Below, piece by piece: positions 9,085-55,680 of a stretch of 64,000 nt of DNA. How positions within the stretch are numbered: the stretch's first letter is position 1; the number at the start of each line of letters is the position of its first letter. This DNA comes from Chloroflexota bacterium (GTDB taxonomy: Bacteria; Chloroflexota; Limnocylindria; P2-11E). Where the stretch lies: assembly GCA_038040265.1 (NCBI GenBank), contig JBBPIP010000008.1:24844-88843 (forward strand), read 5' to 3'. A program made the translations under genes and the position numbers. The notes under the pieces were generated by a model. The model did not search any database and was not told the DNA's origin. It worked only from the letters and a program-made list of their open reading frames with translations.

Positions 9085-10413
9085 TTATTGCGCGTCTTTG
9101 ACGATCTGGTTTGCTTTCGTGGTCGCGGTCGCCATCGCGGCGTCCGGCGTGGACTTGGCGGTGATGACCTCGGTGATCATGTTGAAGATGACGTCGCGGA
9201 TGTCCTGCTGCCCGCGGATGTTCGGCTCTGGGGAGCTGTACTGGATTAGGTCGAAGCCTTGCTTCCCCTGCGGGACCTTCGCCCAGTAATCCTTGAGCGT
9301 CTGCGAGTTCGCGGCCGTCGCGCGGACCGGCATGTAGTACGAGGTCGACGCGAACTGCGCGGACTGGTCGGTCTCGCTCATCCACTTGATGAACATCCAG
9401 GACGCGAGCTGCTTATCCGGCGTGCTCTTGAAGACGGCGACGTTCGCGCCGAACTGCACGGTCTTGGCCTTCGCCGGGTCGGTCGCGGCCTGCGGCAGGT
9501 TCGCGATGCTCCAGCTGAACGACGCCTTGTCGGCGAGATCCTTCATGAACGGAACCGTCGACGTCGATGAGAAGAAGAACGCGAGCTTCCCGGTCGCGAG
9601 GTCGCTCTGGAAGTCGAAGCTCTTCGGGCTGTAGCCCGAGCCGTTCTTGTTCATCCGGTCGTACATCTGGAGGACGGCGAGGCCTTCCTTGCCGTTCCAC
9701 GCGACCGTCTTGTTGTCCGCGGCCATGAGGGTTCCGCCGCGGGCATAGACCTGGGCGTTGAAGTACGACGCGTCGGTGTTGAACGCGAAGCCCATGCGGG
9801 TCACCTTGCCCGAGGCGTCCTTCTTGGTCGCCGCGAGCGCCGTGGCCTCGAACTCATCCCACGTCTTCGGGATCGGCTTGCCGAGCTCCTTGAGGATGTC
9901 GTTGTTCACGTACATGACCGCGAGCGACTTGGTGAACGGCCACGAGAGAAGCCGGTTGCCGTACTGCGGGAACGTGTTCGTGTCGTAGTAGCCCTTGTAG
10001 ATGTCGTCCTGGCTCTCCTTCGTGAGGCCGTTCGTCTTGCTGTCCTTGTACGAGCCGAGGTCGACGACCACGTCCGCCTTCATGTAGTCGGCGACGAAGC
10101 TCTCGTAGGCGTGGGCCAGCTCCGGGAGCGCCCCGGCCTGGATCGCGCCGAGAGTCTTCTGGTAGAGCTGGGTGTAGGTGCCCTGGTTGAGGGCGGTGAC
10201 GGTGACGCCCTTGCCGTTGGTGTCGTTGAACTTCTTCACCATCGCGTCCAGCGCGATCTGCTGCGGCCCGGTGAGCGCGTGCCACAGCGTGATGGCGACC
10301 GGACCCGAGAGCGTGATGTCCGCTTCCGTCGATTGCTGCGCCGCCGGAGGTGCACCGCTGCAGGCCGCCGACACCAGCATGACCGCCGCGAGGATCGCTG
10401 CCTTCATACGCAT
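9085..10413 (-). CDS. ABC transporter extracellular solute-binding lipoprotein (carbohydrate type)
   Basis: 442 aa. Lipoprotein signal MRMKAAILAAVMLVSAAC, family-1 sugar SBP-like sequence, adjacent to two permeases. Confidence 0.9.
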   Translation of the reverse strand: MRMKAAILAAVMLVSAACSGAPPAAQQSTEADITLSGPVAITLWHALTGPQQIALDAMVKKFNDTNGKGVTVTALNQGTYTQLYQKTLGAIQAGALPELAHAYESFVADYMKADVVVDLGSYKDSKTNGLTKESQDDIYKGYYDTNTFPQYGNRLLSWPFTKSLAVMYVNNDILKELGKPIPKTWDEFEATALAATKKDASGKVTRMGFAFNTDASYFNAQVYARGGTLMAADNKTVAWNGKEGLAVLQMYDRMNKNGSGYSPKSFDFQSDLATGKLAFFFSSTSTVPFMKDLADKASFSWSIANLPQAATDPAKAKTVQFGANVAVFKSTPDKQLASWMFIKWMSETDQSAQFASTSYYMPVRATAANSQTLKDYWAKVPQGKQGFDLIQYSSPEPNIRGQQDIRDVIFNMITEVITAKSTPDAAMATATTKANQIVKDAQ

Positions 10414-10467
10414 AGCTCTTCCCTCCTGACCTCCACCGGCCCGTTCGCTACGTAGTACGCGCCCGCC

Positions 10468-11364
10468 TCAACCCCGGATGCCCGTCCGTGCGATGCCCTG
10501 CACGAGGTAGCGCTGAGCAACCAGGAAGAGAAGCACGATTGGAGCGACCACGAATGTGGACGCCGCCATGAGCAGATGGTAGCTCGCCCCCGCTTCCTGC
10601 CGGAACTGCGACAGGCCTACCTGAACGGGTCGGAAGTCGGGTTTGGAGGTGACGATCAGCGGCCACTGGAAGGCGTTCCATGAACCCAGGAACGTGATCA
10701 GGCCGACCGTGATCAGGGCCGGAACGGAGAGAGGCAGGACGATGCTCCAGAGGAACCGCAGGTGCCCCGCGCCGTCCATCCGGGCGGCATCCGCAAGCTC
10801 GTTCGGGATCGACAGGAAGAACTGGCGCATGAGGAAGATCGAAAAGGCGCTGGCGATGAAGGGCACGATCTGCACCTGGTACGTGTCGAACCAGCCGAGG
10901 CAGGGGAGACCCGCGCAGGCCACGCGGCTCGGGCTCATAAGCACGTACTTGGGGATGAGGGTGGCCTCGCCCGGGATCATGAGCGTGGCCAGGAACACCG
11001 TGAAGAGGATGCCTTTGCCGCGGAACTTCATTCGCGCGAACGCGTAAGCCGCCAGGCAGGCCGTGATGACCTCGAGGATCGTGACCGCGATGGAGACGAA
11101 GATCGTATTGATGAAATAGCGACCCCAGGGCGCGCGGCTCCACGCGTCGGTGTAGTTCTCTGGGTGCAGCTCGTTCGGGAAGATCGTCGGCGGTGTGCGG
11201 ATGGCCTCGAGCGTGTCCTTGAACGAGCTCGTCACCATGAAATAAAACGGGTACGCGACGATCAGCGCGACGACGATCAGAACGATGTGCTTGACGATCG
11301 ATCCGATCCGGGGGCGCATCGTCACACGTGGAAGACCGCGCTCGATCGGAATCGCCTCAGTCAT
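10468..11364 (-). CDS. carbohydrate ABC transporter permease (MalG-like)
   Basis: 298 aa, six hydrophobic segments, EAA-type loop (ELADAARMDGAGHLRFLWSIVLP). Confidence 0.9.
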   Translation of the reverse strand: MTEAIPIERGLPRVTMRPRIGSIVKHIVLIVVALIVAYPFYFMVTSSFKDTLEAIRTPPTIFPNELHPENYTDAWSRAPWGRYFINTIFVSIAVTILEVITACLAAYAFARMKFRGKGILFTVFLATLMIPGEATLIPKYVLMSPSRVACAGLPCLGWFDTYQVQIVPFIASAFSIFLMRQFFLSIPNELADAARMDGAGHLRFLWSIVLPLSVPALITVGLITFLGSWNAFQWPLIVTSKPDFRPVQVGLSQFRQEAGASYHLLMAASTFVVAPIVLLFLVAQRYLVQGIARTGIRG

Positions 11365-12388
11365 AGTGCACGCGCCGTCCGAGCACGCGGAACTGAATGA
11401 GCGTGAACAGCAGGATGATCGTCGTGAGGATGAACGCGAGCGCGGCGCCGAGGCCGAACTGCGCCTGCTGGAACGCCGTCTTGAACACGAGCAGAGTCAC
11501 CGTGCGCGTCGTGTCGAGCGGCCCGCCGAAGCCGTTCGTGAGCACGTAGACCGAGTCGAACGAGCGCAGCACACCGATCGACGCGACGGTGAACACGAAG
11601 AACGTCGTCGGCGAGAGAAGTGGCAACGTGATCTTGGTGAAGATCTGCCGCTCGTTCGCGCCGTCCAGGCGCGCTGCCTCGTAGAACTCCTGCGAAATGT
11701 TCGAGAGCCCGGCGAGGAAGATCACGATCTGGTAGCCGAGGTAGTGCCAGACCGTGACGAGCGAGATCACTACGAGCGCGAGGCTCGGCCCGGCGAGCCA
11801 TTCCGGCAGCGTCACACCGAACCCCGACGCGGCGAGCTCGAAGAGCCCCCTCGGCTCGTCGAGCCACTTCTGCGGACCGATCCCGAAGATGCCGATGACA
11901 TCGTTCACAAGGCCGTATTGCGGGTGGAAGACCCAGAAGAAGACCGCCGCGGCGGCGACGAACGACGTGACGTACGGCAGGTAGTAGACGGTCCGGTAGA
12001 TGCCGCGGCCGCGCATCTTCTGGAACAGCAGGTACGCGAGCACGAGAGCGAGCGCGATCTCGAGCGGGACCGTCACGATGACGTACGTGAACGTGGTGGA
12101 GAGCGCCCGCCAGAAGTCGGGGCTGCGGATCGAGTTGTCGTAAAGCCAGTCGGTGTAGTTGCCGAACCCGCGGAACGCCCCCTGGACGACATCCCACTTG
12201 AAGAGCGACATGTAGAAGGCGGCGATCGCCGGAAAGATCTGGAAGACGCCGAGGACGATCACGGCCGGTAGGAGGAAGAGCCACGCCTGGATGGATTCGA
12301 CCGGAAGACGGCGGCGCGGCGACGCGCGGACGCTTGCGGGAATGACCTCGGCCGCCACCGGCTGCGATGATAAGCGAGCGATGCCCAT
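11357..12388 (-). CDS. carbohydrate ABC transporter permease (MalF-like)
   Basis: EAA loop (EFYEAARLDGANERQIFTKITLP). 8-nt overlap with the downstream permease. The start may be the GTG at 12358, because an ATG at 12388 would overlap the divergent FmdB start. Confidence 0.88.
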   Translation of the reverse strand: MGIARLSSQPVAAEVIPASVRASPRRRLPVESIQAWLFLLPAVIVLGVFQIFPAIAAFYMSLFKWDVVQGAFRGFGNYTDWLYDNSIRSPDFWRALSTTFTYVIVTVPLEIALALVLAYLLFQKMRGRGIYRTVYYLPYVTSFVAAAAVFFWVFHPQYGLVNDVIGIFGIGPQKWLDEPRGLFELAASGFGVTLPEWLAGPSLALVVISLVTVWHYLGYQIVIFLAGLSNISQEFYEAARLDGANERQIFTKITLPLLSPTTFFVFTVASIGVLRSFDSVYVLTNGFGGPLDTTRTVTLLVFKTAFQQAQFGLGAALAFILTTIILLFTLIQFRVLGRRVHYD

Positions 12389-14708: not shown

Positions 14709-16024
14709 TGCGAGCCGAGGCGGCCATGCCCATCGGCCGCGCGCGCTTCACCGAGCTCTCGCTCCTGGTCTGGGTCGCGACGTTCGCGATCACCGGGTTT
14801 GTAGCCGTCCTCGCTACGGAAACGGCGTCATTCAGTCCGACGGCCGTCGTCGTGCCCGCGGTGTTCCTTCTGCTGATGCTCGCGCTGCACGTGTTCCTCG
14901 TCGCCATCAGGTTCCGAGGCGACCAGATCCTCATGCCGCTCGCCGCCGGCCTCACCGCGATCGGACTGATCCTCGTGCAGCGCCTCGCGTCCGACCTCCT
15001 GCTGCAGCAGTTGTCGTGGTCGATCATCGCCGCCGGCGCTTTCGCGGCGACGATCCTCGTGCCACGCGACCTGACAGCGCTCGCCCGGTTCAAGTGGACG
15101 TGGGCGATCCTCGGGCTGCTGCTCCTCATGGCGCCGCTCCTACCGGTCATCGGCCGCGAGGTCAACGGCGCTCGGATCTGGGTCAAGATCGGACCCGGGA
15201 GCATCGAGCCCTGGGAGGCCGTGAAGATCCTGCTCGTGATCTTCTTCGCGGCATACCTCGAGGAATACCGCGAGATCCTTTCGCACTCGCAGCGCCGGAT
15301 CGGGCCGTTCCCCGTCCCGCCGGTGCCGTATCTCGTCCCCATCGTGGCCATGTGGGGGATCGCGATGCTGGTGATGGTCTTCGAGAAGGACATGGGTGCG
15401 ACCGTGCTCTTCTTCGGGATCTTCCTCGCGATGCTCTTCCTCGCAACGGGCGAGGCGTTCTACGCGATCATCGGAGTCGGCCTGCTCATCCTCGGCGGTC
15501 TCGTCGCGTACCAGGTTTTCGGACACGTTCAGGTCCGCGTCGACACGTGGCTCCGTCCGTTCGACGAAGACCTCCGGTTCAATCAGGGATTCCAGCTCGT
15601 GCAGGGCCTCTACGCGCTCGCGAACGGCGGACTGCTCGGGGCTGGTCTCGGCAACGGAATGCCCGACCGGATCCCGGTCGTGTGGAGCGACTTCGTCTTC
15701 GACGCGTTCGCCGAGGAGGCGGGCCTTGCGGGCGCGCTAGCGCTCCTCGCTCTTTATCTCGTCTTCCTGTACCGCGGGATGCAGATCGCGCTCCGCGCGC
15801 CCACGCCGTTCCTTCAGCTGCTTGCGGCGGGCCTCTCCTTCATCGTCGCGCTGCAGACCCTGGTCATCGTCGGCGGAAATCTCCGACTCATACCGCTGAC
15901 CGGCATCACCCTTCCGTTCGTCGCGTATGGCGGCTCGTCGCTCGTCACGAACTGGATGCTCGTGGGGATTCTCATGCGCGTCTCACAGGTCTCGAGCCGC
16001 ATGCGTGGTGGGGGACCCTGGTGA
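14705..16024 (+). CDS. rodA: FtsW/RodA/SpoVE-family peptidoglycan glycosyltransferase
   Basis: 439 aa polytopic protein with SEDS motifs (EPWEAVKILLVIFFAAYL, GITLPFVAYGGSS). Sits in the FhaAB-RodA-PBP context. Confidence 0.9.
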   Translation: MMRAEAAMPIGRARFTELSLLVWVATFAITGFVAVLATETASFSPTAVVVPAVFLLLMLALHVFLVAIRFRGDQILMPLAAGLTAIGLILVQRLASDLLLQQLSWSIIAAGAFAATILVPRDLTALARFKWTWAILGLLLLMAPLLPVIGREVNGARIWVKIGPGSIEPWEAVKILLVIFFAAYLEEYREILSHSQRRIGPFPVPPVPYLVPIVAMWGIAMLVMVFEKDMGATVLFFGIFLAMLFLATGEAFYAIIGVGLLILGGLVAYQVFGHVQVRVDTWLRPFDEDLRFNQGFQLVQGLYALANGGLLGAGLGNGMPDRIPVVWSDFVFDAFAEEAGLAGALALLALYLVFLYRGMQIALRAPTPFLQLLAAGLSFIVALQTLVIVGGNLRLIPLTGITLPFVAYGGSSLVTNWMLVGILMRVSQVSSRMRGGGPW

Positions 16025-17460
16025 TGTCGCCGATCAGCACGAACATCCGGGCCCTGACGCTCACGCTTGCGCTCGCGTTCCTCGTGACGTCGATCGGCGC
16101 GGCGTACTGGACGATCCTCGCGTCGGATCAGCTCGCGAACGACCCGTTCAACCCGCGCCTCATCGCCGCGATGAACGGCCGGCCGCGCGGGGCGATCGTC
16201 GATCGCAACGGCGCGCCGCTCGCGACCAGCGACAAGACCGACCCCGGATTCACGCGTTCGTACAAGGAACACTCGCTGGCCCAGGTGATCGGTTACGCGT
16301 CCACCAGGTTCGGTCTCTCCGGCATCGAAGCGGCCTACGCGGAGTCGCTCATCGGCCAGGATCCGGCGGACCCGGTGTCCATCTGGAGGGCGCGGTACCT
16401 CGGAGATCGCGGCCCCGCCGGAGAGGTCGTGCTCGGGCTCGACCTGAAGATCCAGAAGGCCGCGGCCGACGCGCTCGGCGGCCGCAAGGGCGCGATCGTG
16501 GCTCTCGATCCGCGGACCGGCGCGATCCTCGCGTCGGTCAGCGTCCCGAGCTATGACGCCAACCAGGTCGTCGATCGGTCAAAGCAGGACGCCGCGTTCG
16601 CTCAGCTGAATCAGGACGCGGGTCGTCCGCTGCTGAACCGCGCCACCCAGGGCCTCTATCCGCCGGGATCCGTGTTCAAGGTCATCACCGGCGCGGCTGC
16701 GCTCGAGGCCGGGTTCGACGCCACGAAGAAGCTGCGTGTCGACGATCCCTATCAGGCCGATAAGTCGTGGGGCGACTACTTCGTCCGTTCGGCCTCCAAG
16801 GCGCACGGCCTCTTCGACATGGCCGACGGCTTCCGTCTCTCGGAGAACATCTACTTCGCGCAGGTCGCACTCCAGATCGGAGCCCCGAAGCTGACCGATT
16901 ACGCGCGGCGCTTCGGGATCGGGTCGACGCCGACGCTCGATCTCCCCGCCGCGAAAGGCCAGCTCTCCGACTCGGGCTCGATCGACCGGCCGACACTCCT
17001 CGCCGACACGTCCTACGGCCAGGGCGAGCTCCTCGTCTCGCCGCTCCAGATGGCACTCGTCTACGCCGCCATCGCGAACGGCGGCGTGATGCCGACGGCC
17101 CACTACGCCACCGAGGTCCGCGATGGCGAGGGCCACGTCGTGCGTCAGATCGCGCCCGGCCCCGTGGGACAGGTGATCTCTCCGAATACCGCGAGGACGC
17201 TGACGACCATGCTGGTGGGGGCGGTCTCCGGCCCCGGGGCATTTGCGTTCGGAGCAAGGATCCCTGGGGTGGATGTCGCTGGAAAAACGGGCACAGCCGA
17301 AAATCGACCTGGCGAGGCCCCCCACGGCTGGTTTGTTGGCTTCGCGCCGGCTCAGAATCCAACCGTGGTCGTTGTCGTCATCGTTGAGAACACGGCCGAA
17401 GGCGGAGTAACAGCGGCGCCACTTGGAGGCCAAGTGATGAGGGCCGCGCTAGGCAAGTAG
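16024..17460 (+). CDS. pbpA: class B penicillin-binding protein (PBP2/PbpA transpeptidase)
   Basis: ATG at 16024 overlaps the rodA TGA. TM helix, SxxK (PGSVFK), SxN (LSEN) and KTG (GKTGTA) motifs. The ORF-track start at 14626 is an artefactual upstream extension. Confidence 0.9.
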   Translation: MSPISTNIRALTLTLALAFLVTSIGAAYWTILASDQLANDPFNPRLIAAMNGRPRGAIVDRNGAPLATSDKTDPGFTRSYKEHSLAQVIGYASTRFGLSGIEAAYAESLIGQDPADPVSIWRARYLGDRGPAGEVVLGLDLKIQKAAADALGGRKGAIVALDPRTGAILASVSVPSYDANQVVDRSKQDAAFAQLNQDAGRPLLNRATQGLYPPGSVFKVITGAAALEAGFDATKKLRVDDPYQADKSWGDYFVRSASKAHGLFDMADGFRLSENIYFAQVALQIGAPKLTDYARRFGIGSTPTLDLPAAKGQLSDSGSIDRPTLLADTSYGQGELLVSPLQMALVYAAIANGGVMPTAHYATEVRDGEGHVVRQIAPGPVGQVISPNTARTLTTMLVGAVSGPGAFAFGARIPGVDVAGKTGTAENRPGEAPHGWFVGFAPAQNPTVVVVVIVENTAEGGVTAAPLGGQVMRAALGK

Positions 17461-17472
17461 CACACGCCAGCC

Positions 17473-17606
17473 CGCGGGTCCTGTCCCGGCTACGCGGGTC
17501 TCTCCCTCAGCGCACCCTCCCCGCCCTGCAGCTCACTTCGTTCGCTGCGGGCGGGTCCCCGGGGCACCCGCGCTTCGTGAGAGACCCGCTGCGCCGTGCC
17601 ACCCGC
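17473..17606. repeat. ~130-bp GC-rich palindromic intergenic element, copy B (inverted relative to copy A)
   Basis: CGCGGGTCCTGTCCCGG (17473-17489) is the reverse complement of the copy A end motif. CCGTGCCACCCGC (17594-17606) is the reverse complement of the copy A start motif. Internal hairpin GCGGGTCTCTC (17494-17504) pairs with GAGAGACCCGC (17579-17589). Confidence 0.6.
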
Positions 17607-17735
17607 GGGCGGCATGGAACTAACCAGGTAGCGCAGCCGTATATGAACTTAGGGTCTTCCTACGTTGTTTCCTAAGAAGCCCTGATACTTCTTGCAGCAG
17701 CCGCGGAAACTCAGCGAAGAGGGGTAAGTAGCACG

Positions 17736-18698
17736 GTGGAGAAAGCTCTCGCGGCGAAGGTCAACGGCGTTGTCGAGAACGTCGAGCGGGTCATCTTCGG
17801 CAAGCACCACGAGATTGAGCTCGCGCTGGTCGCGCTCCTCTGTCGCGGCCACATCCTCGTGGAAGACGTCCCGGGTACCGGGAAGACCGTGCTTGCGAAG
17901 GCCCTGGCCCGGTCGCTCGGCTGCACCTTCCGTCGCATCCAGTTCACGCCGGACCTTCTGCCGTCCGACGTCACCGGCGTCTCGATCTTCAACCAGCGGA
18001 CGAACACGTTCGAGTTCCGCCCGGGACCGGTGATGAGCCAGGTCGTCCTCGCGGACGAGATCAACCGCGCGACGCCGAAGACGCAGTCGGCGCTCCTGGA
18101 GTCGATGGACGAGCACCAGGTGACGGTCGACGGAACGACCTATCAGCTGCCGGAGCCGTTCCTCGTCCTTGCGACCCAGAACCCGATCGAGTACGAGGGC
18201 ACCTTCCCGCTCCCCGAGGCCCAGCTCGACCGGTTCTTCATGCGGATCCAGCTCGGCTACCCCAAGGCGAAGGAAGAGATCGCGATCCTGGACGCCCAGC
18301 GGATCATCCACCCGCTCGAGACGATCGATCAGGTGCTGACCTCCGATGAGCTCCTCCGCGCGCAGTCGGCCTCTCGCGAGATCCACCTCGCCGAGGCGGT
18401 GAAGAAGTACGTGGTCGACGTCGTCACGGCGACCCGGTCGCACCCCGACGTCTATCTCGGCGCCTCGCCGCGCGGATCCCTCGCTCTGTCGCGGGCGGCA
18501 CAGGCGTTCGCCTCGATAAATGGTCGCGACTACGTGGTGCCGGACGACGTGAAGGCGCTCGCCGCGCCGACGCTCGCGCACCGCCTCATCCTTCAGCCCC
18601 AGGCGCGGCTCAAGGACCTGGCCGCAACGACCGTCATCGCCGAAATCCTGGCCAGCGTTCCGGTCGAGTCGGTCTCCGCTCAAGCGCTGCGGGCTTAA
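17736..18698 (+). CDS. MoxR-family AAA+ ATPase
   Basis: Walker A VPGTGKT, Walker [11 protein letters not shown], and typical MoxR length (320 aa). Confidence 0.92.
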
Positions 18699-18702
18699 GC
18701 CC

Positions 18703-19911
18703 TTGAAGCCCTGGCGCTTCGCGGTCCTGTGGCTCGTCCTCTTCGTCGTCGCCGTTTCGACAGGGGTCGAGCTCCTCTCGTACCTCTCGTACCTCGTGCT
18801 GTTCGTGGCGATCGCGATGTCAGTCCTTGCGCGTCTGACCCTCGAAGGACTCTCAGTGAAGCGATCGCTGGGGCAGTCGTATGCCCATCTCGGCGACACC
18901 ATCGAGCTCGACTACGAGCTCACCAACGATCACTCCCTCGGCAAGCTCTGGCTCGAGGTCTTCGAGAAGTCGAACTGGCCTGAGCCTCTTCCGGGTCGGG
19001 TGCTCGGCATCGGTGGCCACAAGACGCGCAAATGGAAGGTGCTCGCAAAGGCACAGCGTCGCGGGCGCTTCCGCCTCGGGCCGATCGTGCTCCGGAGCGG
19101 CGATCCATTCGGACTATTCGCGACGGAGGCCCGCGTTCCATCGGAGGCGCTCCTTCTCGTCTATCCGCGTGTCGTCCAGTTGCCGTTCTGGGCGCTTCCG
19201 GGATCGCTGCTCGAGGGCAACGTGCTCACAGGGCAGAGGTCGTTGCAGTCGACGTCCATGGTCATGGGCATCCGCGAGTACCAGCCGGGCGATGCCATGA
19301 ACCGGATTCATTGGCCGTCGTCGGTGCGCCACCGGCGGCTGCATGTGAAGGAATTCGAGCTCGACCGCACCGCGGACCTCTGGATCTACCTCGACCTCGA
19401 TGGCCGCTGGCATCACGGCGACGGCGAGGATTCCACCGAGGAGCGGGCGGTCACCGTGGCGGCGTCGGTCGTGCGCAAGGCGCTCGACGGGCACCGCAAC
19501 GTTGGCCTCGTCACGAACGGCCACCGCGCGGAAGTGCTGCACCCGGACCGGGGCACAAAGCAATTCGGAAAGCTCATGCAGTACCTCGCGGAAGTGCACG
19601 CCGGTGGAACGCGCACGCTTCAGGAGACTCTCGTCGAGACGCTCCCGCGTCTGCGGCGAGGCGCTTCGTGCCTTCTGATCACACCCTCGCTCGATCGTGG
19701 CTGGGTCCGGCCGGCGAGCACGCTCCGTGAGACCGCGATCGCGACGCAGGCCGTTCTCGTCAGCCCGCCGTTCGATCTGGACGAGCGAGACCGCGCACGT
19801 CGGCGGGCGATCCTCGGCGAGCTTGCCGTCGCCGGGGTGCCCGCGGCGCACCTCGCGGCGGGCGCCCCCATCGAAGAGCTCTTCCACGAAACGTCGGCGG
19901 CGATCGCATGA
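18703..19911 (+). CDS. DUF58 domain protein (MoxR partner)
   Basis: N-terminal TM helices and DUF58 hallmark GIREYQPGDAMNRIHWPSS. Immediately follows moxR. Confidence 0.8.
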   Translation: MKPWRFAVLWLVLFVVAVSTGVELLSYLSYLVLFVAIAMSVLARLTLEGLSVKRSLGQSYAHLGDTIELDYELTNDHSLGKLWLEVFEKSNWPEPLPGRVLGIGGHKTRKWKVLAKAQRRGRFRLGPIVLRSGDPFGLFATEARVPSEALLLVYPRVVQLPFWALPGSLLEGNVLTGQRSLQSTSMVMGIREYQPGDAMNRIHWPSSVRHRRLHVKEFELDRTADLWIYLDLDGRWHHGDGEDSTEERAVTVAASVVRKALDGHRNVGLVTNGHRAEVLHPDRGTKQFGKLMQYLAEVHAGGTRTLQETLVETLPRLRRGASCLLITPSLDRGWVRPASTLRETAIATQAVLVSPPFDLDERDRARRRAILGELAVAGVPAAHLAAGAPIEELFHETSAAIA

Positions 19912-19978
19912 AAGGACGCGTCCGCGTGGCCCTGCGGGCCCTTGATCAATCTCTCGGCGTCGCCGAGGAGACGCGTTC

Positions 19979-47843: not shown

Positions 47844-48680
47844 ATGCCGCGTCCGCAGGCTCCGCCCGTACAGGTCGCGCGCTGGCGCGCAGGCGACTGG
47901 CGCGACGATCGCGATCAGGTCGCCGCGGAGGAACCGCTCCAACTCTTACTCGATGGCAAGCCGCTCTCGATCGTCATGCGGACGCCCGGAAACGACCTCG
48001 AGCTGGCGCTCGGTCTCCTGTGGGCGGAGCGGGTCATCCGTTCGCTCGACGACATCGCTCGCGTCCGCATCAGCGCCGAGGCCCAGGAGAACGACCCGGC
48101 GGTCTCGCTCGCGAACGATCTGGTCGAATCGAACCACGTCGACGTCTATCTCCGCGCGAGCGGTGGTCGTCGCCCGGAGCGCTCGTTCCTCGCGACGTCC
48201 GCGTGCGGGGTCTGCGGCGCGACGACGGTCGAGTCGCTTGCCCTCGACTTCCCGCGTCTTCCACCCGGTCCGACGGTCAGCCCGGCGATGCTACCTGGGC
48301 TCTCCGATCGCCTTCGCGAGCAGCAGCGCATTTTCGAGTCGACGGGCGGCCTTCATGCGGCGGGACTCTTTGACGAGCACGGCGAGCTCGAGCTGCTCCG
48401 CGAGGACATCGGCCGTCACAACGCAGTCGACAAGATCGTCGGGCGCGCTTTGCTCGACGGCCGGCTGCCGCTCGCGCGCGCCGTCCTCGCAGTGAGCGGG
48501 CGAGCCGGCTACGAGGTGGTGCAAAAGGCGGTCGCGGCGGGAATCCCGATCCTCGCGGCGGTCGGCGCGCCGTCGAGCCTCGCGGTCGCGACCGCCGAAC
48601 GCTTCGGGATGACGCTCGTGGGGTTCCTTCGGGACGATCGCTTCAATGTGTACACGGCGCCGGAACGTATCGGGAGGTAG
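47844..48680 (+). CDS. fdhD: formate dehydrogenase accessory sulfurtransferase FdhD
   Basis: SACGVCG active-site loop and GRHNAVDK motif. 278 aa. Confidence 0.9.
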   Translation: MPRPQAPPVQVARWRAGDWRDDRDQVAAEEPLQLLLDGKPLSIVMRTPGNDLELALGLLWAERVIRSLDDIARVRISAEAQENDPAVSLANDLVESNHVDVYLRASGGRRPERSFLATSACGVCGATTVESLALDFPRLPPGPTVSPAMLPGLSDRLREQQRIFESTGGLHAAGLFDEHGELELLREDIGRHNAVDKIVGRALLDGRLPLARAVLAVSGRAGYEVVQKAVAAGIPILAAVGAPSSLAVATAERFGMTLVGFLRDDRFNVYTAPERIGR

Positions 48681-48682
48681 AC

Positions 48683-49615
48683 ATGGCCCGGATCGCTGGG
48701 GACAAGCTCCACCCGAAAGCGCGCGCGATCGTCGATCAGATAGCGGCGCTTCCTCAGCTCCCGAAGCTCACCCCTGTCGAGGCACGCGGCCGTCCCGTGC
48801 CGCTCGAGGCGGCGCCCGAGGCGGTCGGGACGGTGACCGCGCGGACGATCCCGGGCCCCGGCGGCCCTATGGCCGTCCGCATCTACCGCCCGAAGGACGC
48901 GCTCCGCAGTGCGCTCGTGTACTTCCACGGTGGCGGCTGGGTCCTCGGATCGCTCGAGAGCGCGGATGCGTCGTGCCGCGTTCTCGCGAATCGCTCTCGC
49001 TGTGTCGTGATCTCGATCGACTACCGGCTCGCGCCGGAGACGAAGTTCCCGGGGCCGGTCGAAGACGCCTACGCCGCGGTCCTATGGGCATCCAGCGCCG
49101 ACCAGGCGGCGGAGCTGCGAATCGATCCCACGAAGATTGCGGTCGGCGGTGCGAGCGCCGGCGGGAACCTCGCCGCCGCGGCAGCGCTCGTCGCCCGCGA
49201 TCGGGGCGGCCCGAAGATCGCGTTGCAGCTGCTCACCGTGCCGGTGACCGAGCTCAGCTCGCGGGCAGAGTCGCACCGTGAGTTCGCGGTCGGCTACGGG
49301 TTGAGCGCCGCCGACATGGAGTGGTTCGGGAGGCACTACGTTCGGACTGCGGCGGACGCGGACGACCCGCAAGCGTCCGTGCTCCGCGCGGGCTTGCACG
49401 GGCTGCCGCCGGCCTTCGTGATCACCGCGGAATGCGACCCACTGCGTGATGACGGAGAGGCATACGCCGATAAGCTGCGGAAGCTAGGCATTCGCGCCAG
49501 CTACAAGCGCTACCCGGGCATGTTTCACGGCTTCATGAGCTTCCCCGGAGTGCTGCCAGAAGCGGCGCAGGCGTTCGAGGATGCCGGATCCGCACTGCGA
49601 GAGGCGCTCGGCTAG
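48683..49615 (+). CDS. alpha/beta hydrolase, hormone-sensitive-lipase-type esterase
   Basis: HGGGW oxyanion motif and GGASAGG (GxSxG) nucleophile elbow. Confidence 0.85.
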   Translation: MARIAGDKLHPKARAIVDQIAALPQLPKLTPVEARGRPVPLEAAPEAVGTVTARTIPGPGGPMAVRIYRPKDALRSALVYFHGGGWVLGSLESADASCRVLANRSRCVVISIDYRLAPETKFPGPVEDAYAAVLWASSADQAAELRIDPTKIAVGGASAGGNLAAAAALVARDRGGPKIALQLLTVPVTELSSRAESHREFAVGYGLSAADMEWFGRHYVRTAADADDPQASVLRAGLHGLPPAFVITAECDPLRDDGEAYADKLRKLGIRASYKRYPGMFHGFMSFPGVLPEAAQAFEDAGSALREALG

Positions 49616-49627
49616 ACGCGTCCGAAG

Positions 49628-49912
49628 CTACGCGGGCGGCTCCTGCTCCAGCTCCGCACGCACCTCTCGGATAAACGCCGCGATCGCCGCTGCGTCCTCC
49701 GGTTTCGCTTCTCGCAAACGCTCGACCGCGACGCCGGCCGTATACGCGGCGAGGGGCGCAAAGCGGCGTTCCTTCGTGTGCGAGACGACTCGGGCGAGGT
49801 CCAGGAGCTCCTCGGCGACTTTCGGATCGAGTCTCGGCTCCTCGATTTTCACGCCGTGCCGTTCCGCGGCCTTCTGCCAGCGCTTGCCGAGCGACTCGAA
49901 GAACTCGTTCAT
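49628..49912 (-). CDS. small hypothetical protein (DUF6457-like?)
   Basis: 94-aa ORF. The resemblance to small proteins found next to molybdoenzyme genes is from memory only. Confidence 0.45.
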   Translation of the reverse strand: MNEFFESLGKRWQKAAERHGVKIEEPRLDPKVAEELLDLARVVSHTKERRFAPLAAYTAGVAVERLREAKPEDAAAIAAFIREVRAELEQEPPA

Positions 49913-49979
49913 CAGGCGAGAACCTTAGCGCCGCGCTTGCGTGTGGGGAAATGCCGGAGTAGAACGGGTTCCGATTCCG

Positions 49980-52900
49980 ATGACGGAAATCACTCGTCGT
50001 GAGTTCCTGAAGCTCGGAGCCGCCGGCACCGCCGGCATGGCGCTGGTTCCCCTTGCAAATCCCCTAGGTTTCGATGTCGCCGCGGCGAAAAAGCGCGCGC
50101 TTGACCTTCGCATATCGGGCGCCAAGGAAGTCCACTCGTTGTGCCCCTACTGCGCGGTCGGCTGCTCGCTCATCGCCTACACGAAAGAAGTCAACGGAAA
50201 GACCCAGCTGCTTCAGATCGAGGGAGACCCTGATAGCCCGGTGAACGAGGGCCGTCTCTGCCCGAAGGGCGCGGCCGCGATGCAGCTCGCCACGAGCGCG
50301 CGTCGCGTCGAAAAGCCGATGTACCGGGCGCCGGGCAGCACCAGCTGGGAAGCGAAGAGCTGGGACTTCATGCTCGACAAGCTCGCGCAAAACATCAAGG
50401 CGTCGCGCGACAACAGTTTCGTCGCGCAGGACGCGAACGGTAACGTCGTCAACCGCACCGAGGGAATCGCGTTCGCCGGGGGCGCCGCGTTCTCGTCCGA
50501 GGAGGGGTACTTCGCCACGAAGCTCATGCGGAGCTTGGGCGTCGTACATCTGGAGCAGCAAGCCCGGGTCTGACACGGCCCAACGGTGGTCAGTTTGGCC
50601 GCCTCATTCGGACGGGGAGCGATGACGAACCACTGGCGTGACATCAAGCACGCCGACCTCATCCTGATCAACGGGGCCAACCCCGCGGAGGCGCACCCCG
50701 TCGGGTTCCAATGGTTCGTCAAGGCGAAGCTCGATCCGACTAAGGGTCCGGGCTCCGGCGGCGGGGCGAAGATCATCCACGCCGATCCCCGGTTCACGCG
50801 GACCTCTGCGCTCGCCGACATCTACCTGCGTATCCGGACCGGCACCGACGTCGCCTACTTCGGCGGGCTCATCAACTACGTCATCCAGAACAAGCTCTAT
50901 CACGAGGAATACGTCAAGAACTACACGAACGCCTCCTTCATGGTGAAGGAGGGCTTCGACTTCAAGGACGGGCTGTTCTCGGGATTCAACCCGTCGACAC
51001 GCTCGTACGACATCTCGACGTGGGCGTATGAGCAAACGACGCCGCCGCCGCCGCAGGCGGGCGCGGCAGGGGCTGGCGCGGGTGCGGGAGCGACCGAGGG
51101 CCCGCCGACCAGCCAGTCGGGCTTCGCGAGACGCGACATGACATTGCAGGATCCCCGTTCCGTGTGGCAGCTCCTCATCAAGCACTACTCGCGCTACACG
51201 CCCGAGATGGTGTCGAGCATCACCGGCATTCCCGTCGACCAGTACCTCCAGGTCGCGAAGCTCGTCGGCGAGATGGGAAAGCCGGACAAGGTCATGACCA
51301 TCGTGTACGCAGTCGGCCTTACCCACCACACGACTGGCGGCCAGCTCATCCGATCGGGCGCTCTCCTGCAGCTCATCCTCGGCAACATGGGTCGCCCGGG
51401 CGGTGGGATGAACGCCGAGCGCGGTCACGCCAACATCCAGGGCAACACCGACCACGCGATCAGCTGGGAGATTCTCCCGGGCTACCTGCGCATCCCCGGT
51501 CCAGGGCAGAAGAACCTGACGGACTACGTCAACGTCAACGCGCCGAAGAAGAGCGACCCGAACTCGTGGAACTTCTTCGGCACGAACTACCGCAACTTCA
51601 TGGTCAGCCTCCTGAAAGGCTGGTACGGCGCAAAGGCCACGAAGGACAATGAGTTCGCGTTCGACTACATCCCGAAGCCCGCGGTGAACTCGTCGTGGAT
51701 GTCCATCTTCGACCAGGCGCTCAAAGGAAAGATGGAGGGCGTGATGCTCTCGGGCATGACGGCCACCTCCATCGGCCCGGATTCGAACCAGGTGATGGAA
51801 GCCCTCGGGAAGCTGAAGTGGCTCGTGGTCATGGACCCGCTGCCGACGACCAGCTCTGAGTTCTGGCACGCGCCCAACGTCGATCCGACGACGATCCAGA
51901 CCGAGGTCTTCATGCTGCCGACCACACACTGGATCGAGAAGGATGGGTCGTTCGTGAACAGCGGGCGGTGGTCGCAATGGAAGGACCAGGTCATCCCGCC
52001 CGAGGGCGAGGCGCGCCACGATCACTGGATCATGGCCGAGCTCTACGATCGCGTGAAGACGCTCTACAGGCAGCAGAGCGGGAAGTTCCCCGATCCGATC
52101 ATGGCGCTCACGCTCGACTACAAGGATCCGAAGAAGCCCGAGCTTGACGAGCTCGCGAAAGAGATCAACGGAAAGAACCTCGCGACCGGTGGGCAGATGG
52201 CGAGCTTCGCCCTCCTGAAAGACGACGGATCGACGACCGCGGGTGACTGGATCTACACCGGCAGCTACCCCGACGCGGGCAACCTCTCGAAGCGGCGCAA
52301 CGGGATCTCGAATCCGCAGCTGAACGATCCAACGGGTATGGGCTTCTACCCCAACTGGGCCTGGAGCTGGCCGCTCAACCGCCGCGTCCTCTACAACCGC
52401 GCGTCGGCGGATCTCGAGGGCAAGCCGTGGGACCCCAAGCGCCCGGGCATCCAGTGGAACGGGACGACATGGACGGGCGACGTGCCCGACTACCCGGCGA
52501 CGATGAATCCCAAGGACCCCGCGGCGTGGCTGCCATTCATCATGAACGGCGAAGGCGTCGGCCGGCTCTTTTCGAGCTCGATGCTCGACGGTCCGTTCCC
52601 CGAGCACTACGAGCCGTATGAGGCGCCGATCCCCAACCCGCTGCACCCGAATCAATCGGAGGATCCCGTCGCGTTCTTGTACGACCAGGCCGCCGGGCGC
52701 CCGAGCCGCTTCGGCAAAGTCGACAAGTTCCCGTACGTCGCGACGAGCTACCGGCTCACGGAGCACGAGCACTACGTGACCCAGCACGTGCCGCTGCTGG
52801 TGGGCCTGCAGCCGCAAGCGTTCGTTGAGGTGCCGCAGGAGCTCGCCGACGAGAAGGGCATCAAGAACGGCGATCGTGTCCGCGTGTCCAGCGGGAGAGG

Positions 52901-53138
52901 AAAGCTCGAGGTCGCCGCGCTCGTCACCAAACGGCTCGGCCCGGTGACGCTCGCCGGGAATAAGAAGGTTTACCACATCGGCATCCCGATCCACTGGGGC
53001 TTCGTCGGCATATCCGCGGAGCAGAACCCCGATCACTCGAAGTATTGGCTCGCAAACGCCCTGACGCCGATGGTCGGCGACGTGGGTGCGCGGACGCCCG
53101 AGTTCAAGGCGTTCCTCGTGAACATCGAGAAGCTCTGA
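49980..53138 (+). CDS. fdnG: formate dehydrogenase-N-type catalytic subunit, Tat-exported, selenocysteine-containing (UGA at 50571-50573)
   Basis: Twin-arginine signal MTEITRREFLK and a CPYCAVGC Fe-S motif. ORFs 49941..50573 and 50586..53138 are in the same frame. The junction reads ...EQQARV-[TGA]-HGPTVVSLAASFGRGAMTNHW, matching the FdnG Sec site ARVUHGPTV. Confidence 0.92.
50577..50600 (+). promoter_or_regulatory. candidate bacterial SECIS hairpin
   Basis: GGCCCAAC-GGUGGUCA-GUUUGGCC: an 8-bp stem with one C.U mismatch, starting 4 nt after the UGA, with GGU in the loop. Hand-folded only. Confidence 0.4.
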
Positions 53139-53932
53139 TGACGCTTGTTGCCGAACCGACGACGACCTACGCGCAGCGCCGTGAGCGCGCTCGCGAGCTC
53201 GGCGCGCGCTTCGACTTCGCGCAGCAGCCGCTCGCGCTCTATCTCGCCGTCGTGGATGCGCAGGAGCGCGTATTCGACCGCGCGCAACGGGACCGACCGA
53301 GCCTGGGCGACCTTGCTGCGTACGTCGTGCGCGTGGCGCTCCCCGGCGTGATGGAGGCGGCCGTCGCCGCCGGCACTGAGACGTTGCGGGAGGCGACGCT
53401 TTTGCGTTTCCACGAGGCCGATCTCGAGGGCCTGATCGAGGCATGGCTCGAGGGCGACGAGACTTCTGCCACGGATACCTTCCTCGCCCGCGCGAGCAGC
53501 CAGCCGGTGCTCGAGGCGCTTCCCGACCTTGCCGCCCAGCTCCGTCCGACGGATGCGGATGAGCGACGCTGCCCGAGGTGCGGCGGCCTTCCCCAGCTCG
53601 CTGTGTTCCCGGAGACAGGCGAGGCACTCCTCACGGCGCAGCGCACGCTCGTCTGCTCGCGCTGCGCGAACGAGTGGGTGATGAGCCGCATGACGTGCGT
53701 GTCGTGCGGTGAGACCTCGGGCGCGAAGATGCCGATCCTGTCCGACGTCGATTCCTTCCCTCATTTAAGAGTCGACGCATGCGAGATCTGCCGGCGTTAT
53801 CTCATCACCGTCGATCTGCGCAAAGATTCGCGCGCCGTTCCGGTCGTCGACGAGCTCGCCGCGCTGCCGCTCGATCTGGTCGCCGCCGAGCGCGGCTACA
53901 CCAAGATCGCGCGCAATCTGATGGGGTTTTAG
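53138..53932 (+). CDS. fdhE: FdhE-like formate dehydrogenase maturation protein
   Basis: ATG overlaps the fdnG TGA. Four CxxC pairs (CPRCGG, CSRCANEW, CVSCGE, CEICRRY), as in FdhE. Confidence 0.8.
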   Translation: MTLVAEPTTTYAQRRERARELGARFDFAQQPLALYLAVVDAQERVFDRAQRDRPSLGDLAAYVVRVALPGVMEAAVAAGTETLREATLLRFHEADLEGLIEAWLEGDETSATDTFLARASSQPVLEALPDLAAQLRPTDADERRCPRCGGLPQLAVFPETGEALLTAQRTLVCSRCANEWVMSRMTCVSCGETSGAKMPILSDVDSFPHLRVDACEICRRYLITVDLRKDSRAVPVVDELAALPLDLVAAERGYTKIARNLMGF

Positions 53933-54781
53933 ATGGCCTTCTTAGAAAAGCCCATGGGGTTCTTCACCGACACGTCGATCTGCATCGGCTGCAAGGCCTG
54001 CGAGGTCGCCTGCAAGGAGTGGAATCAGCTCGAGGGGAACCCGCCAACGCTCACCGCCGACTCGTACGACAACACCGGGCAGCTCGACGCCCAGAACTGG
54101 CGGCATGTGCAGTTCATCGAAACCGTGCCGGACAACAACGGCGTGGTCTTCAACCCGACCCCGATCGCGGGCGGGCAAGCGTGGCTGATGATGAGCGACG
54201 TCTGCAAGCACTGTAAGAACGCGAGCTGCATGGAGGTGTGTCCGACGAACGCCCTCATGCGCACGGAATACGACACCGTTTATCTGCAGAAGGACGTCTG
54301 CAACGGTTGCCGGAACTGCATCTCGGCGTGCCCGTACGGCGTCATCGGTTTCAACGAGGAGCAGGGCGTCGCGCAAAAATGCACCCTCTGCTACGACCGG
54401 TTGCAGGGCGGCCTCCAGCCGGCGTGCGCGAAGGCATGCCCGACGGAATCGATCAAGTTCGGCTACATCGAGGACCTGCACAAGGTCGCCGACGATCGGC
54501 TCGCCAACTTGCAGAAGCAGGGCTACGCCAAGGCGCAGCTCTACGGCCGCGACGACAAGGTCTACGGCGGGCTCAACGCGTTCTTCCTTTTGATGGACAA
54601 GCCCGAGGTCTACAAGCTGCCCAACGCGGAGAACGCGACCCTTCCGAGCCGCAACAACCTGCCGGGCTACGTCGGCGGCGTCGCGACCGCGGTCGTCGGG
54701 CTCATCGCCGGACTCCTCGCGTTCCGCAGCGGCCGGATGAACGCGAACAACAACCACAACACGCAGCCGCCGTCGTCCTGA
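53933..54781 (+). CDS. fdnH: formate dehydrogenase Fe-S (beta) subunit with C-terminal TM anchor
   Basis: Multiple 4Fe-4S motifs (CIGCKACEVACK, CKHCKNASCMEVCP, CNGCRNCISACP, CTLCYDR...CAKACP) and a C-terminal hydrophobic helix. Confidence 0.92.
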   Translation: MAFLEKPMGFFTDTSICIGCKACEVACKEWNQLEGNPPTLTADSYDNTGQLDAQNWRHVQFIETVPDNNGVVFNPTPIAGGQAWLMMSDVCKHCKNASCMEVCPTNALMRTEYDTVYLQKDVCNGCRNCISACPYGVIGFNEEQGVAQKCTLCYDRLQGGLQPACAKACPTESIKFGYIEDLHKVADDRLANLQKQGYAKAQLYGRDDKVYGGLNAFFLLMDKPEVYKLPNAENATLPSRNNLPGYVGGVATAVVGLIAGLLAFRSGRMNANNNHNTQPPSS

Positions 54782-55680
54782 TGCCGCCAGCTGAGCACTT
54801 CGCCGCGGCCCCGCAATGGGAGTGGTGGATCCTGGGGTACTTCTTCTTTGGGGGCATCTCCGGCGGCAGCTACGCGCTCGGCACGCTGCTGCGCCTCGCC
54901 GGCGATCCACGGGACCGTTCTGCCTCGCAGCTCGCATACATCGCGAGCTTCGTCGCGCTTCTCCCGTGCCCAGTCTTCCTGATCGCCGACCTCGGCCAGC
55001 CGCTCCGCTTTATCCACATGCTCGTCGACGCGAGCCCGGGTGGCGGGCTCGCCTTCATACCGGACTCGCCGATGAGCCTCGGATCGTGGGCGCTCCTGGG
55101 CTTCGGTGTCTTCTCGTTCGGGTCGTTCCTGGGCGCCCTCGCCGAGGGCGGCACGGTCCGCGCGCTCGCGCCGCTCGCGCGCGCGATGCAGGGGCTGCCC
55201 GCCACGATCTGGGGCGTGATCGGCACCGGGCTCGGGTTCTTCATCTGTGGGTACACCGGGGTCCTCCTCGCAGTCTCGAATCAGGCCGTGTGGAGCGACG
55301 CCGGCTGGGCGCTCGGCGGCATGTTCCTGGCGTCGGCGCTCGCGGGGTCGGCCGCGTTGCTGCTTCTCCTGGCTCGCTCGCGCCGCGACGTAGATCCCGA
55401 CACCGCGGTTCGCCTCGAGACGGCGGACCGCTACTTCGTCATCCTCGAGACGATCCTCATAGTCGTATTCCTCATCACGCTCGCTATCGCGGGCACGATC
55501 GGTAAGGTCCTCGGCGTGTGGATCGTCCTCTGGCTCGTCGTGGTCATCGGGTTGGCCGCGCCGATCGCGATGCTGAGGTGGGACGCCGCGCGCCGCTGGC
55601 CGCCGGTGGCGGCACCGATCCTCGCGCTCCTCGGCGTGCTCGCGCTCCGCGCCCTCGTGATCTTCAGCGCGCAGACCTAG
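54781..55680 (+). CDS. NrfD/PsrC-family polytopic membrane (quinone-interacting) subunit
   Basis: The A of the fdnH TGA is shared with this ATG. WEWWILGYFFFGGISGGSY is the NrfD-family N-terminal signature. About 8 TM segments. Confidence 0.8.
   Translation: MPPAEHFAAAPQWEWWILGYFFFGGISGGSYALGTLLRLAGDPRDRSASQLAYIASFVALLPCPVFLIADLGQPLRFIHMLVDASPGGGLAFIPDSPMSLGSWALLGFGVFSFGSFLGALAEGGTVRALAPLARAMQGLPATIWGVIGTGLGFFICGYTGVLLAVSNQAVWSDAGWALGGMFLASALAGSAALLLLLARSRRDVDPDTAVRLETADRYFVILETILIVVFLITLAIAGTIGKVLGVWIVLWLVVVIGLAAPIAMLRWDAARRWPPVAAPILALLGVLALRALVIFSAQT

Follow-up and report, generated by a model that had tools for sequence, protein, structure and literature searches.

We have identified a formate dehydrogenase gene of a Limnocylindria genome, fdnG, in which the in-frame TGA at 50571-50573 is very probably a selenocysteine (Sec) codon, accompanied by a SECIS hairpin and lying within a single Tat-exported gene. 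The gene sits in a window of 64 kb, by which we mean the whole stretch of DNA that was analyzed, and the features of the locus are collected in Table 1. Comparison with E. coli FdnG and with relatives of the gene supports the Sec-codon reading of this TGA, and in annotation fdnG should be entered as one selenoprotein gene of 1052 codons, not as two ORFs. Sec genes with an internal stop are routinely split into two ORFs by gene finders. The arrangement is well known, and what is understood of Sec recoding is unchanged by the case of fdnG.

Table 1. Features of the fdnG locus, in window coordinates
Feature	Position	Strand	Remarks
fdhD, formate dehydrogenase sulfurtransferase (maturation factor)	47844..48680	+	NF001943, 277.5 bits (cut-off 269)
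fdnG, formate dehydrogenase catalytic (alpha) subunit	49980..53138	+	1052 codons; predicted Sec at codon 198
Tat signal peptide (predicted), MTEITRREFLKLGAAGTAGMALVPLANPLGFDVAAA	49980..50090	+	T-RR-E-F-L-K motif; aligns with the E. coli FdnG signal
Rfam SECIS_3 (RF01989), FdnG/FdoG-type SECIS, full-length match	50568..50626	+	model positions 1-59 of 59
UGA predicted to be read as selenocysteine (U198), then His199	50571..50573	+	aligned with Sec196/His197 of E. coli FdnG
Predicted tryptic peptide over the Sec site of the fdnG product			V-U-HGPTVVSLAASFGR
SECIS apical hairpin, GGUGGUCA-GUU-UGGCCGCC	50585..50603	+	8-bp stem; loop G23 U24 U25 at 50593-50595
fdnG terminal stop TGA	53136-53138	+	
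fdhE-like accessory gene	53138..53932	+	TIGR01562 FdhE, 66 bits (below cut-off); Pfam FdhE_C, 42 bits
fdnH-like iron-sulfur (beta) subunit	53933..54781	+	TIGR01582 FDH-beta, 167 bits (cut-off 334.7); Pfam 4Fe-4S dicluster domains
NrfD/PsrC-type membrane subunit	54781..55680	+	Pfam NrfD (PF03916), 76.3 bits

Gene model and protein family of fdnG

The first-pass annotation had joined the ORFs 49941..50573 and 50586..53138 into one gene, and this was borne out. The TGA lies in frame between the two ORFs, which share a frame, and GTG 50586 is merely the first start-type codon downstream of it. Reading through the TGA gives the peptide ...EQQARV-U-HGPTVVSLAASFGRGAMTNHW. The true start is the ATG at 49980, not the GTG at 49941, because the N-termini of relatives read M/V-TEITRREF. 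At the other end of the gene, the stop of fdnG overlaps the ATG of fdhE (junction TGATG), and ribosomes must therefore get to the end of fdnG.

The whole fdnG product scored 1252.6 bits against TIGR01553 (FdnG-type alpha subunit; cut-off 814.2), aligned over its full length with E. coli FdnG at 46% identity in BLASTP and matched PDB 1kqf_A with E = 4e-292. The ARV-U site had been likened to the FdnG-type Sec site, and the likeness holds residue for residue around Sec196 in the alignments with PDB 1kqf_A and by BLASTP. The TGA falls on the Sec196 column, with U198, H199 and R481 of the fdnG product on U196, H197 and R446 of E. coli FdnG. Further features are shared with E. coli FdnG/FdoG (the alpha subunits of FDH-N/FDH-O; PDB 1KQF): a Tat signal, the Cys-x2-Cys-x3-Cys...Cys pattern of the N-terminal [4Fe-4S] cluster (FS0), where CPYCAVGC...CPKG aligns with CTYCSVGC...CPKG, the ARV-U-HGPTV Sec site, the catalytic His and Arg, and a C-terminal FLVNIEK. 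The Pfam domain Molybdop_Fe4S4 was found with 58.7 bits. The N-terminus, MTEITRREFLK, has the twin-arginine motif of the Tat signal already proposed there and can be aligned with the signal of E. coli FdnG; Pfam TAT_signal scored 21.1 bits, marginally below its cut-off of 22.7. Unlike E. coli FdnG, the Limnocylindria protein has a Pro/Ala/Gly-rich insert of 25 residues (354-378).

The hairpin downstream of the UGA

Positions in the SECIS are numbered with the U of UGA as position 1. The hairpin at 50585-50603 folds with an energy of -12.1 kcal/mol (z -3.8), a stability that was equalled in 0 of 200 shuffles. Its stem (15-33) is paired in 98.3% of cells over 53 distinct sequences. Pair 18-30 changes from G:C to C:G, on both sides, in two separate clades (at least two independent changes), and loop positions G23 and U24 are invariant in 53/53 distinct sequences. 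Codons 202-208 (ACG GTG GTC AGT TTG GCC GCC) are under the strongest synonymous constraint in the gene, ranking first among 249 seven-codon windows with a normalised synonymous entropy of 0.049 against a median of 0.51, and rare codons under the hairpin are fixed (AGT in 80/80, TTG in 76/80). The energy of a 76-nt fold around the TGA was unremarkable (z -0.6), and long-stretch single-sequence folding is therefore uninformative here.

A hairpin after the UGA had also been drawn in the first-pass annotation; a conserved hairpin does exist, and the register given for it, 50577-50600, was wrong. The structure at 50577-50600 can form (-8.7 kcal/mol), yet with a z of -0.98 it is no better than shuffles. 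It is not kept by relatives, since 38 of 53 sequences cannot form pair 12-25 and pair 7-30 is lost exactly where 18-30 co-varies, and its spacing of 11 nt between UGA and loop is too short for the bSECIS model. In that model an upper stem of 4-16 bp, lying directly 3' of the UGA and within the coding region, is capped by an apical loop of 3-9 nt; 16-37 nt separate the UGA from this loop, and one of the first two loop positions is a G with G or U after it (PMC13188914 Fig. 2A). The hairpin at 50585-50603 has this geometry (3-nt loop, 8-bp stem), its loop G23 U24 U25 agrees with the loop sequence, and 19 nt (positions 4-22) separate the UGA from the loop.

The match to Rfam SECIS_3 scored 58.4 bits (E = 2.2e-13), which leaves it 4.6 bits short of the gathering score (63) and outside formal membership of the family, because the lower stem is weak and U17 is paired. 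A default Rfam scan of the whole 64-kb window returned no matches; SECIS_3 was missing from it because of this shortfall, and surfaced only under an E-value threshold. By comparison, Rfam SECIS_2 (fdhF type) reached only 13.5 bits at the fdnG site. As in E. coli FdnG/FdoG, the SECIS lies on the codons for T-V-x-S-L-A, with AGU giving A22 G23 U24. Unlike the E. coli elements, in which U17 is bulged, the present one has a U17-G31 wobble, and it keeps the Rfam model's lower stem poorly (66.5% paired). The upper-stem register of the Rfam model (U17 bulged, 16-31 paired) is ruled out in this lineage, where 16-31 never pairs. The SECIS of E. coli fdhF is reportedly a minimal upper stem-loop located 11 nt past the UGA (Liu et al. 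1998; Huttenhofer et al. 1996). The fdnG hairpin resembles it in beginning at position 15, also 11 nt past the UGA, and in having G23/U24 in the apical loop in the same numbering. It differs in its GUU loop closed by A22-U26, where fdhF has GGUC, in being without the bulged U17, and in its protein context, which is FdnG and not FdhF.

In the mechanism that we propose, the mRNA hairpin, 11 nt past the UGA, would show G23/U24 in its loop. We infer that it is most likely bound by the Sec-specific elongation factor SelB with Sec-tRNA(Sec), which would reach the UGA instead of a release factor. Selenium would be incorporated at the UGA, and translation would run on for 854 codons to the real stop, the TGA that overlaps the fdhE ATG. 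As in E. coli FDH-N, U198 would then be a ligand of the Mo/W bis-MGD cofactor, with the catalytic residues His199 and Arg481 next to it, in a product predicted to be exported via the Tat pathway.

Conservation of the TGA and competing readings

TGA occupies the Sec codon in every one of the 79 relatives that yielded the motif (about 80 species-level MAGs; 80/80 with the window counted). These relatives have 70-95% protein identity and carry the MAG labels Limnocylindria, Dormibacterota, Actinomycetota, Methylomirabilota, Acidobacteriota and others. Compared with 12 relatives, dN/dS was 0.07-0.29 upstream of the TGA and 0.05-0.23 downstream, with exactly one internal TGA per frame; both halves of the gene are thus under purifying selection. 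Assembled contigs served as an independent check of the letters themselves: those of four runs from three studies have TGA at 50571-50573, with no alternative letter.

These results bear on several other explanations of the TGA. The source is a metagenome-assembled genome, where errors occur, but a sequencing or assembly error, or a recent inactivating mutation that would make fdnG a pseudogene, is effectively refuted by the identical TGA in every relative with the motif and in the contigs of all four runs, and by a downstream dN/dS that betrays no decay of the region after the TGA. To either variant we give almost no weight. The chance that TGA is read as sense throughout the genome (genetic code 4 or 25) is negligible. 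The open frame is the only argument for it, whereas 18 of the 39 genes with family support in the window end in TGA, which refutes genome-wide reassignment; fdnG itself is among them, and its TGA lies where its homologues end. Highly improbable, in our judgment, is a truly split gene, in which a 197-residue Tat/Fe-S polypeptide would stop at the TGA and another polypeptide, of 850 residues, would start from GTG 50586. A standard gene caller does give the two ORFs, and a gene called on the assembly of a public run has the same end. Neither product of the split would, however, have the metal-ligand residue or the catalytic His-Gly-Pro-Thr, GTG 50586 is without a GGAGG-type Shine-Dalgarno upstream, and its codon is GTC, a non-start, in three relatives. 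Nor would two separate polypeptides account for the synonymous constraint, the co-varying pair or the match to SECIS_3.

A different question is which residue enters at the UGA, as the same hairpin might recode it by inserting something other than Sec: Cys, by means of a tRNA-Sec-like tRNA-Cys(UCA) and a SelB paralogue (selC*/selB*), or whatever near-cognate read-through supplies. Sec and Cys at a UGA are indistinguishable from sequence data alone, and SelB-like opal decoding based on tRNA-Cys(UCA) has been described (PMC5389517). However, the groups from which selC* was reported there are Firmicutes, Thermodesulfobacteria, Nitrospirae and Proteobacteria, and in each case a complete Sec system accompanied it; Chloroflexi are not among them, and genuine tRNA-Sec has already been reported from Chloroflexi (PMC5389517). 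Actinomycetotal relatives with an identical SECIS sequence have selB, tRNA-Sec(UCA), selD and selA adjoining the operon, and Cys is far more simply encoded by a TGC codon. We therefore consider insertion of another residue very unlikely and retain Sec as the residue at codon 198.

Selenocysteine machinery and operon context

Use of Sec by fdnG had led to the expectation that the rest of the genome would supply a full set of sel genes, and selA, selB, selC and selD are presumably present in it. Within the 64-kb window, NCBIfam scans of about 50 ORFs detected no selA, selB or selD, and ARAGORN detected no tRNA, tRNA-Sec included. In the relatives L069 and L076 (Actinomycetota), selB, tRNA-Sec, selD and selA adjoin the operon; selB and tRNA-Sec do so in L079 (Actinomycetota), and tRNA-Sec alone is found beside it in L068. 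When E. coli and actinomycetotal SelA, SelB and SelD were searched by tblastn against the loci of 80 relatives, matches were obtained in three Actinomycetota loci only, and a search for SelA homologues likewise matched only actinomycetotal sequences. In source-like permafrost runs, several short contigs matched about 32 nt of the 3' part of an actinomycetotal tRNA-Sec, at a depth of 2-7 where that of the organism is about 15-20, and these contigs are not assignable to it.

A literature search found no paper on selenocysteine in Limnocylindria. This Limnocylindria genome belongs among the selenocysteine users in any scoring, and its other in-frame TGAs therefore merit re-inspection. Being comparatively supported and from an uncultured soil lineage, the SECIS could also serve as a training case for SECIS and selenoprotein finders in high-GC genomes. 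FdhA is the most widespread bacterial selenoprotein, occurring in 67 of 75 Sec-using genomes (PMC1794560).

The operon departs from canonical FDH-N (FdnGHI) in that fdnH is followed by an NrfD-type gene and not by the di-haem cytochrome b FdnI. It differs from E. coli FDH-N further in having fdhE between the alpha and beta genes. The ATG of the NrfD-type gene overlaps the fdnH stop (TGATG). We tentatively suggest, at rather less than even confidence, that fdnG(Sec)-fdhE-fdnH-nrfD represents a class of its own among membrane-bound formate dehydrogenases that depend on Sec, one that is biochemically uncharacterised, in which a haem-free NrfD anchor replaces cytochrome b and which has its own SECIS variant (U17 paired, not bulged; 21 nt almost invariant). 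If this were true, its spread over MAGs of Limnocylindria, Dormibacterota, Actinomycetota, Methylomirabilota, Acidobacteriota and others would mean that the operon has moved laterally between aerobic soil bacteria. The Sec machinery might then have been co-transferred, as the sel genes linked to the actinomycetotal copies suggest.

The fdnG product also aligns over its full length (E ~1e-253) with the periplasmic W/Mo-Sec FdhA of Desulfovibrio vulgaris and D. gigas (PDB 6SDR, 1H0H), whose alpha subunit is likewise Tat-exported and Sec-containing. Those enzymes are soluble periplasmic alpha-beta proteins without a membrane anchor, whereas here an NrfD-type anchor gene follows. The gene order fdnG-fdhE-fdnH-nrfD was found in 49/49 relatives with sufficient flanking sequence.

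An in-frame TGA within one formate dehydrogenase gene

The TGA at 50571-50573 is in frame and joins two open reading frames, 49941..50573 and 50586..53138, in a window with a G+C content of 67%. Translation of 49980-53135 with TGA read as selenocysteine (Sec, U) yields a 1052-residue protein with this one internal TGA, and reproduces the junction peptide given in the first-pass annotation, ...LEQQARV-U-HGPTVVSLAASFGRGAMTNHW. That annotation was also right that GTG 50586 is a mere downstream start-type codon, the fifth after the TGA. The start of fdnG is ATG 49980, since relatives begin with M/V-TEITRREFLK. At its other end, the stop codon of fdnG shares bases with the following gene's ATG (TGATG), an arrangement consistent with fdnG being translated throughout and coupled translationally to that gene.

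The claim of one catalytic subunit was borne out: the product scores 1252.6 bits against NCBIfam TIGR01553 (formate dehydrogenase-N subunit alpha; cut-off 814.2), and BLASTP aligns it end to end with E. coli FdnG (reference sequence from NC_000913.3) at 46% identity. E. coli FdnG is also the best solved structure (1kqf_A, E = 4e-292), followed by Sec-containing FdhA of Desulfovibrio. U198 is aligned without a gap on the E. coli Sec residue U196, H199 on H197, and R481 (NAERGH) on R446 (NALRGH). The FS0 cysteine motif aligns as well, as does the proposed N-terminal Tat signal, for which the Pfam TAT_signal match is marginal; the other Pfam domains are Molybdop_Fe4S4, Molybdopterin and Molydop_binding. 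Unlike E. coli FdnG, the window protein carries a Pro/Ala/Gly-rich low-complexity insert, TPPPPQAGAAGAGAGAGATEGPPTS (residues 354-378; 51039-51113), located at the point where HMMER splits the 1kqf_A match into two stretches. Overall FdnG length varies among relatives from 1005 to 1052 residues.

Scanning a single genome of each species yielded 80 loci with protein identities of 70-95%. Of these, 79 contain the motif QQAR[VL]-x-HGPTV, and x is TGA in 79/79, a count that leaves out the one locus with no match to the motif (L078). When the window was compared with 12 relatives (dS 0.4-1.1), Nei-Gojobori dN/dS was 0.07-0.29 over the 197 codons upstream of the TGA and 0.05-0.23 over the 854 codons downstream, so each half is evolving as a protein-coding region. 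Three studies supplied four public runs whose contigs cover the site, and these show no alternative letter; the sole variant listed in them is C>T at the third codon position 50453, seen in two runs. In each of the four runs, contigs end at 50588, 50616 or 50645, close to the recoding hairpin (SECIS). Together, the variant and the breaks suggest that several related strains sharing the invariant SECIS stretch tangle the assembly graph around 50588-50645.

Position and conservation of the recoding hairpin

The first-pass annotation correctly placed a hairpin after the UGA, but in the wrong register. With the U of UGA as position 1, its hairpin 7-30 (50577-50600) has a folding energy of -8.7 kcal/mol (z -0.98), 38 of 53 distinct relatives lack pair 12-25, and no pair co-varies. 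The conserved hairpin, redrawn at 15-33 (50585-50603), is GGUGGUCA-GUU-UGGCCGCC and folds at -12.1 kcal/mol (z -3.8; equally stable shuffles, 0/200), with 98.3% of cells paired across 53 distinct sequences. At pair 18-30, 50 sequences have G:C and three have C:G; these three fall in two separate clades of the protein tree (L031 with L047, and L041), which implies two or more independent origins of the double change. Pair 7-30 of the earlier register is broken in exactly these three sequences.

Synonymous variation is nearly nil in codons +4 to +10 after the UGA (ACG GTG GTC AGT TTG GCC GCC), where AGT (80/80) and TTG (76/80) are kept although the gene, being rich in G+C, rarely uses either; four- and six-fold codons on either side have entropies of 1-2 bits. 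This is the most constrained seven-codon window gene-wide (rank 1 of 249; normalised entropy 0.049 versus a median of 0.51), and the eight lowest-entropy windows all overlap it. The E. coli fdnG SECIS uses the same codons, AGU again being A22 G23 U24. The spacing of 11 nt from UGA to stem and the loop residues G23/U24 are those of the minimal SECIS in E. coli fdhF. Rfam SECIS_3 (RF01989) matches 50568-50626 over its full length (58.4 bits, E = 2.2e-13); because the gathering score is 63, a default Rfam scan is empty. When the Rfam structure is mapped on the alignment, its lower stem is weak (66.5% paired) and its pair 16-31 never forms in the window lineage, where U17, bulged in the Rfam model, pairs with G31 in a continuous helix. 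Hairpin 15-33 agrees in every respect with the bSECIS model (loop of 3-9 nt starting with G then G/U, stem of 4-16 bp, UGA-to-loop distance of 16-37 nt; PMC13188914), its own UGA-to-loop distance being 19 nt.

At codon +6 (GTC, 50589-50591), eight relatives in at least five separate clades (L007, L013, L023, L052, L070, L071, L075 and L081) have Thr in place of Val, always by the double change GUC to ACC, with no single-step intermediates among relatives. The U20-G28 wobble becomes C20-G28 while G19-C29 becomes an A-C mismatch, which looks like stability compensation within the stem.

Operon architecture and spread

The order fdnG-fdhE-fdnH-nrfD is found in all 49 relatives with enough downstream sequence, under several phylum labels. 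A TGATG overlap likewise links fdnH to nrfD. The membrane anchor here is a haem-free NrfD-type protein, in contrast to the cytochrome b FdnI of canonical FdnGHI; the catalytic subunit is thus FdnG-type, in a complex that by gene order differs from canonical FdnGHI. An fdnG with a Sec TGA is a very well-known kind of gene; only the operon architecture and its spread across phyla are less ordinary.

Features of the fdnG region and of Sec loci in Actinomycetota relatives
Feature	Sequence	Position	Strand
fdhD	window	47844-48680	
esterase	window	48683-49615	
DUF6457	window	49628-49912	minus
fdnG	window	49980-53138	plus
fdhE-like	window	53138-53932	
fdnH-like	window	53933-54781	
NrfD-type membrane subunit	window	54781-55680	
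selB, tRNA-Sec(UCA), selD; selA	L076	15678-19949	selA divergent, others on one strand
selB, tRNA-Sec(UCA), selD; selA	L069	about 15670-19960	selA divergent, others on one strand
selB, tRNA-Sec	L079	about 10089-11980	

The 94-aa DUF6457 gene between the esterase gene and fdnG is also called in an independent assembly contig (L001). The loci closest to the window are MAGs labelled Chloroflexota or Candidatus Limnocylindria. One locus binned as Candidatus Udaeobacter (Verrucomicrobiota; L003, DATLPP010000060.1) has an FdnG that shares 92% identity with the one in the window and nests in the Limnocylindria clade, adjoining the window; it is probably a mis-binned contig rather than a lateral transfer. 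Odd phylum labels (Verrucomicrobiia, Eisenbacteria) also occur inside the Dormibacterota clade, and L025, L028 and L035 were flagged along with L003.

Selenocysteine machinery and alternative readings

No tRNA was found in the 64-kb window, and no SelA, SelB or SelD among the ~50 window ORFs scanned. Two Actinomycetota relatives (L069, L076) carry selB, tRNA-Sec(UCA), selD and selA a few kb from the operon; the flank of a third (L079) has selB with tRNA-Sec only, and that of L068 tRNA-Sec alone. No sel gene or tRNA-Sec lies within 10 kb in Limnocylindria or Dormibacterota loci. A SelA homologue search returned actinomycetotal proteins only. The permafrost metagenomes in which the window is present at 100% of sampled words include several short contigs with a partial match to a tRNA-Sec, which are not assignable to this organism. 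In the Actinomycetota relatives the FDH operon is followed by the machinery at a distance of about 2.5-7 kb, the layout proposed to let the trait be transferred along with fdhA. Among bacterial selenoproteins FdhA is the most widespread (67/75 Sec-using genomes; PMC1794560), and tRNA-Sec has been reported in Chloroflexi (PMC5389517).

Sequencing error or a pseudogene is excluded by TGA conservation, selection and independent assemblies. TGA terminates 18 of 39 family-supported window genes, fdnG included, so the genetic code is not reassigned. A split gene, with a second polypeptide starting at GTG 50586, is highly improbable: it would lose the metal ligand, and three relatives have GTC where it is supposed to start. 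Insertion of Cys from tRNA-Cys(UCA) by a SelB-like factor, which sequence alone would not distinguish from Sec, is very unlikely; the paper describing such decoding does not list Chloroflexi among its carriers (PMC5389517). About 20 Limnocylindria-clade relatives combine the conserved TGA, the constrained SECIS and downstream purifying selection, a combination difficult to account for if this UGA were not decoded in the lineage. The in-frame TGA is thus as first described, and its reading as the Sec codon of one fdnG, with the redrawn hairpin, is supported by these comparisons.

Three MAG contigs of Chloroflexota or Dormibacterota (L055:525, L057:8036 and L062:1857) carry, a few kb away from fdnG, a second molybdopterin oxidoreductase gene with an in-frame TGA (ENQARI-U-HSSTVPGLGASFGRGG), a sign that fdnG does not encode the only Sec enzyme of these lineages.
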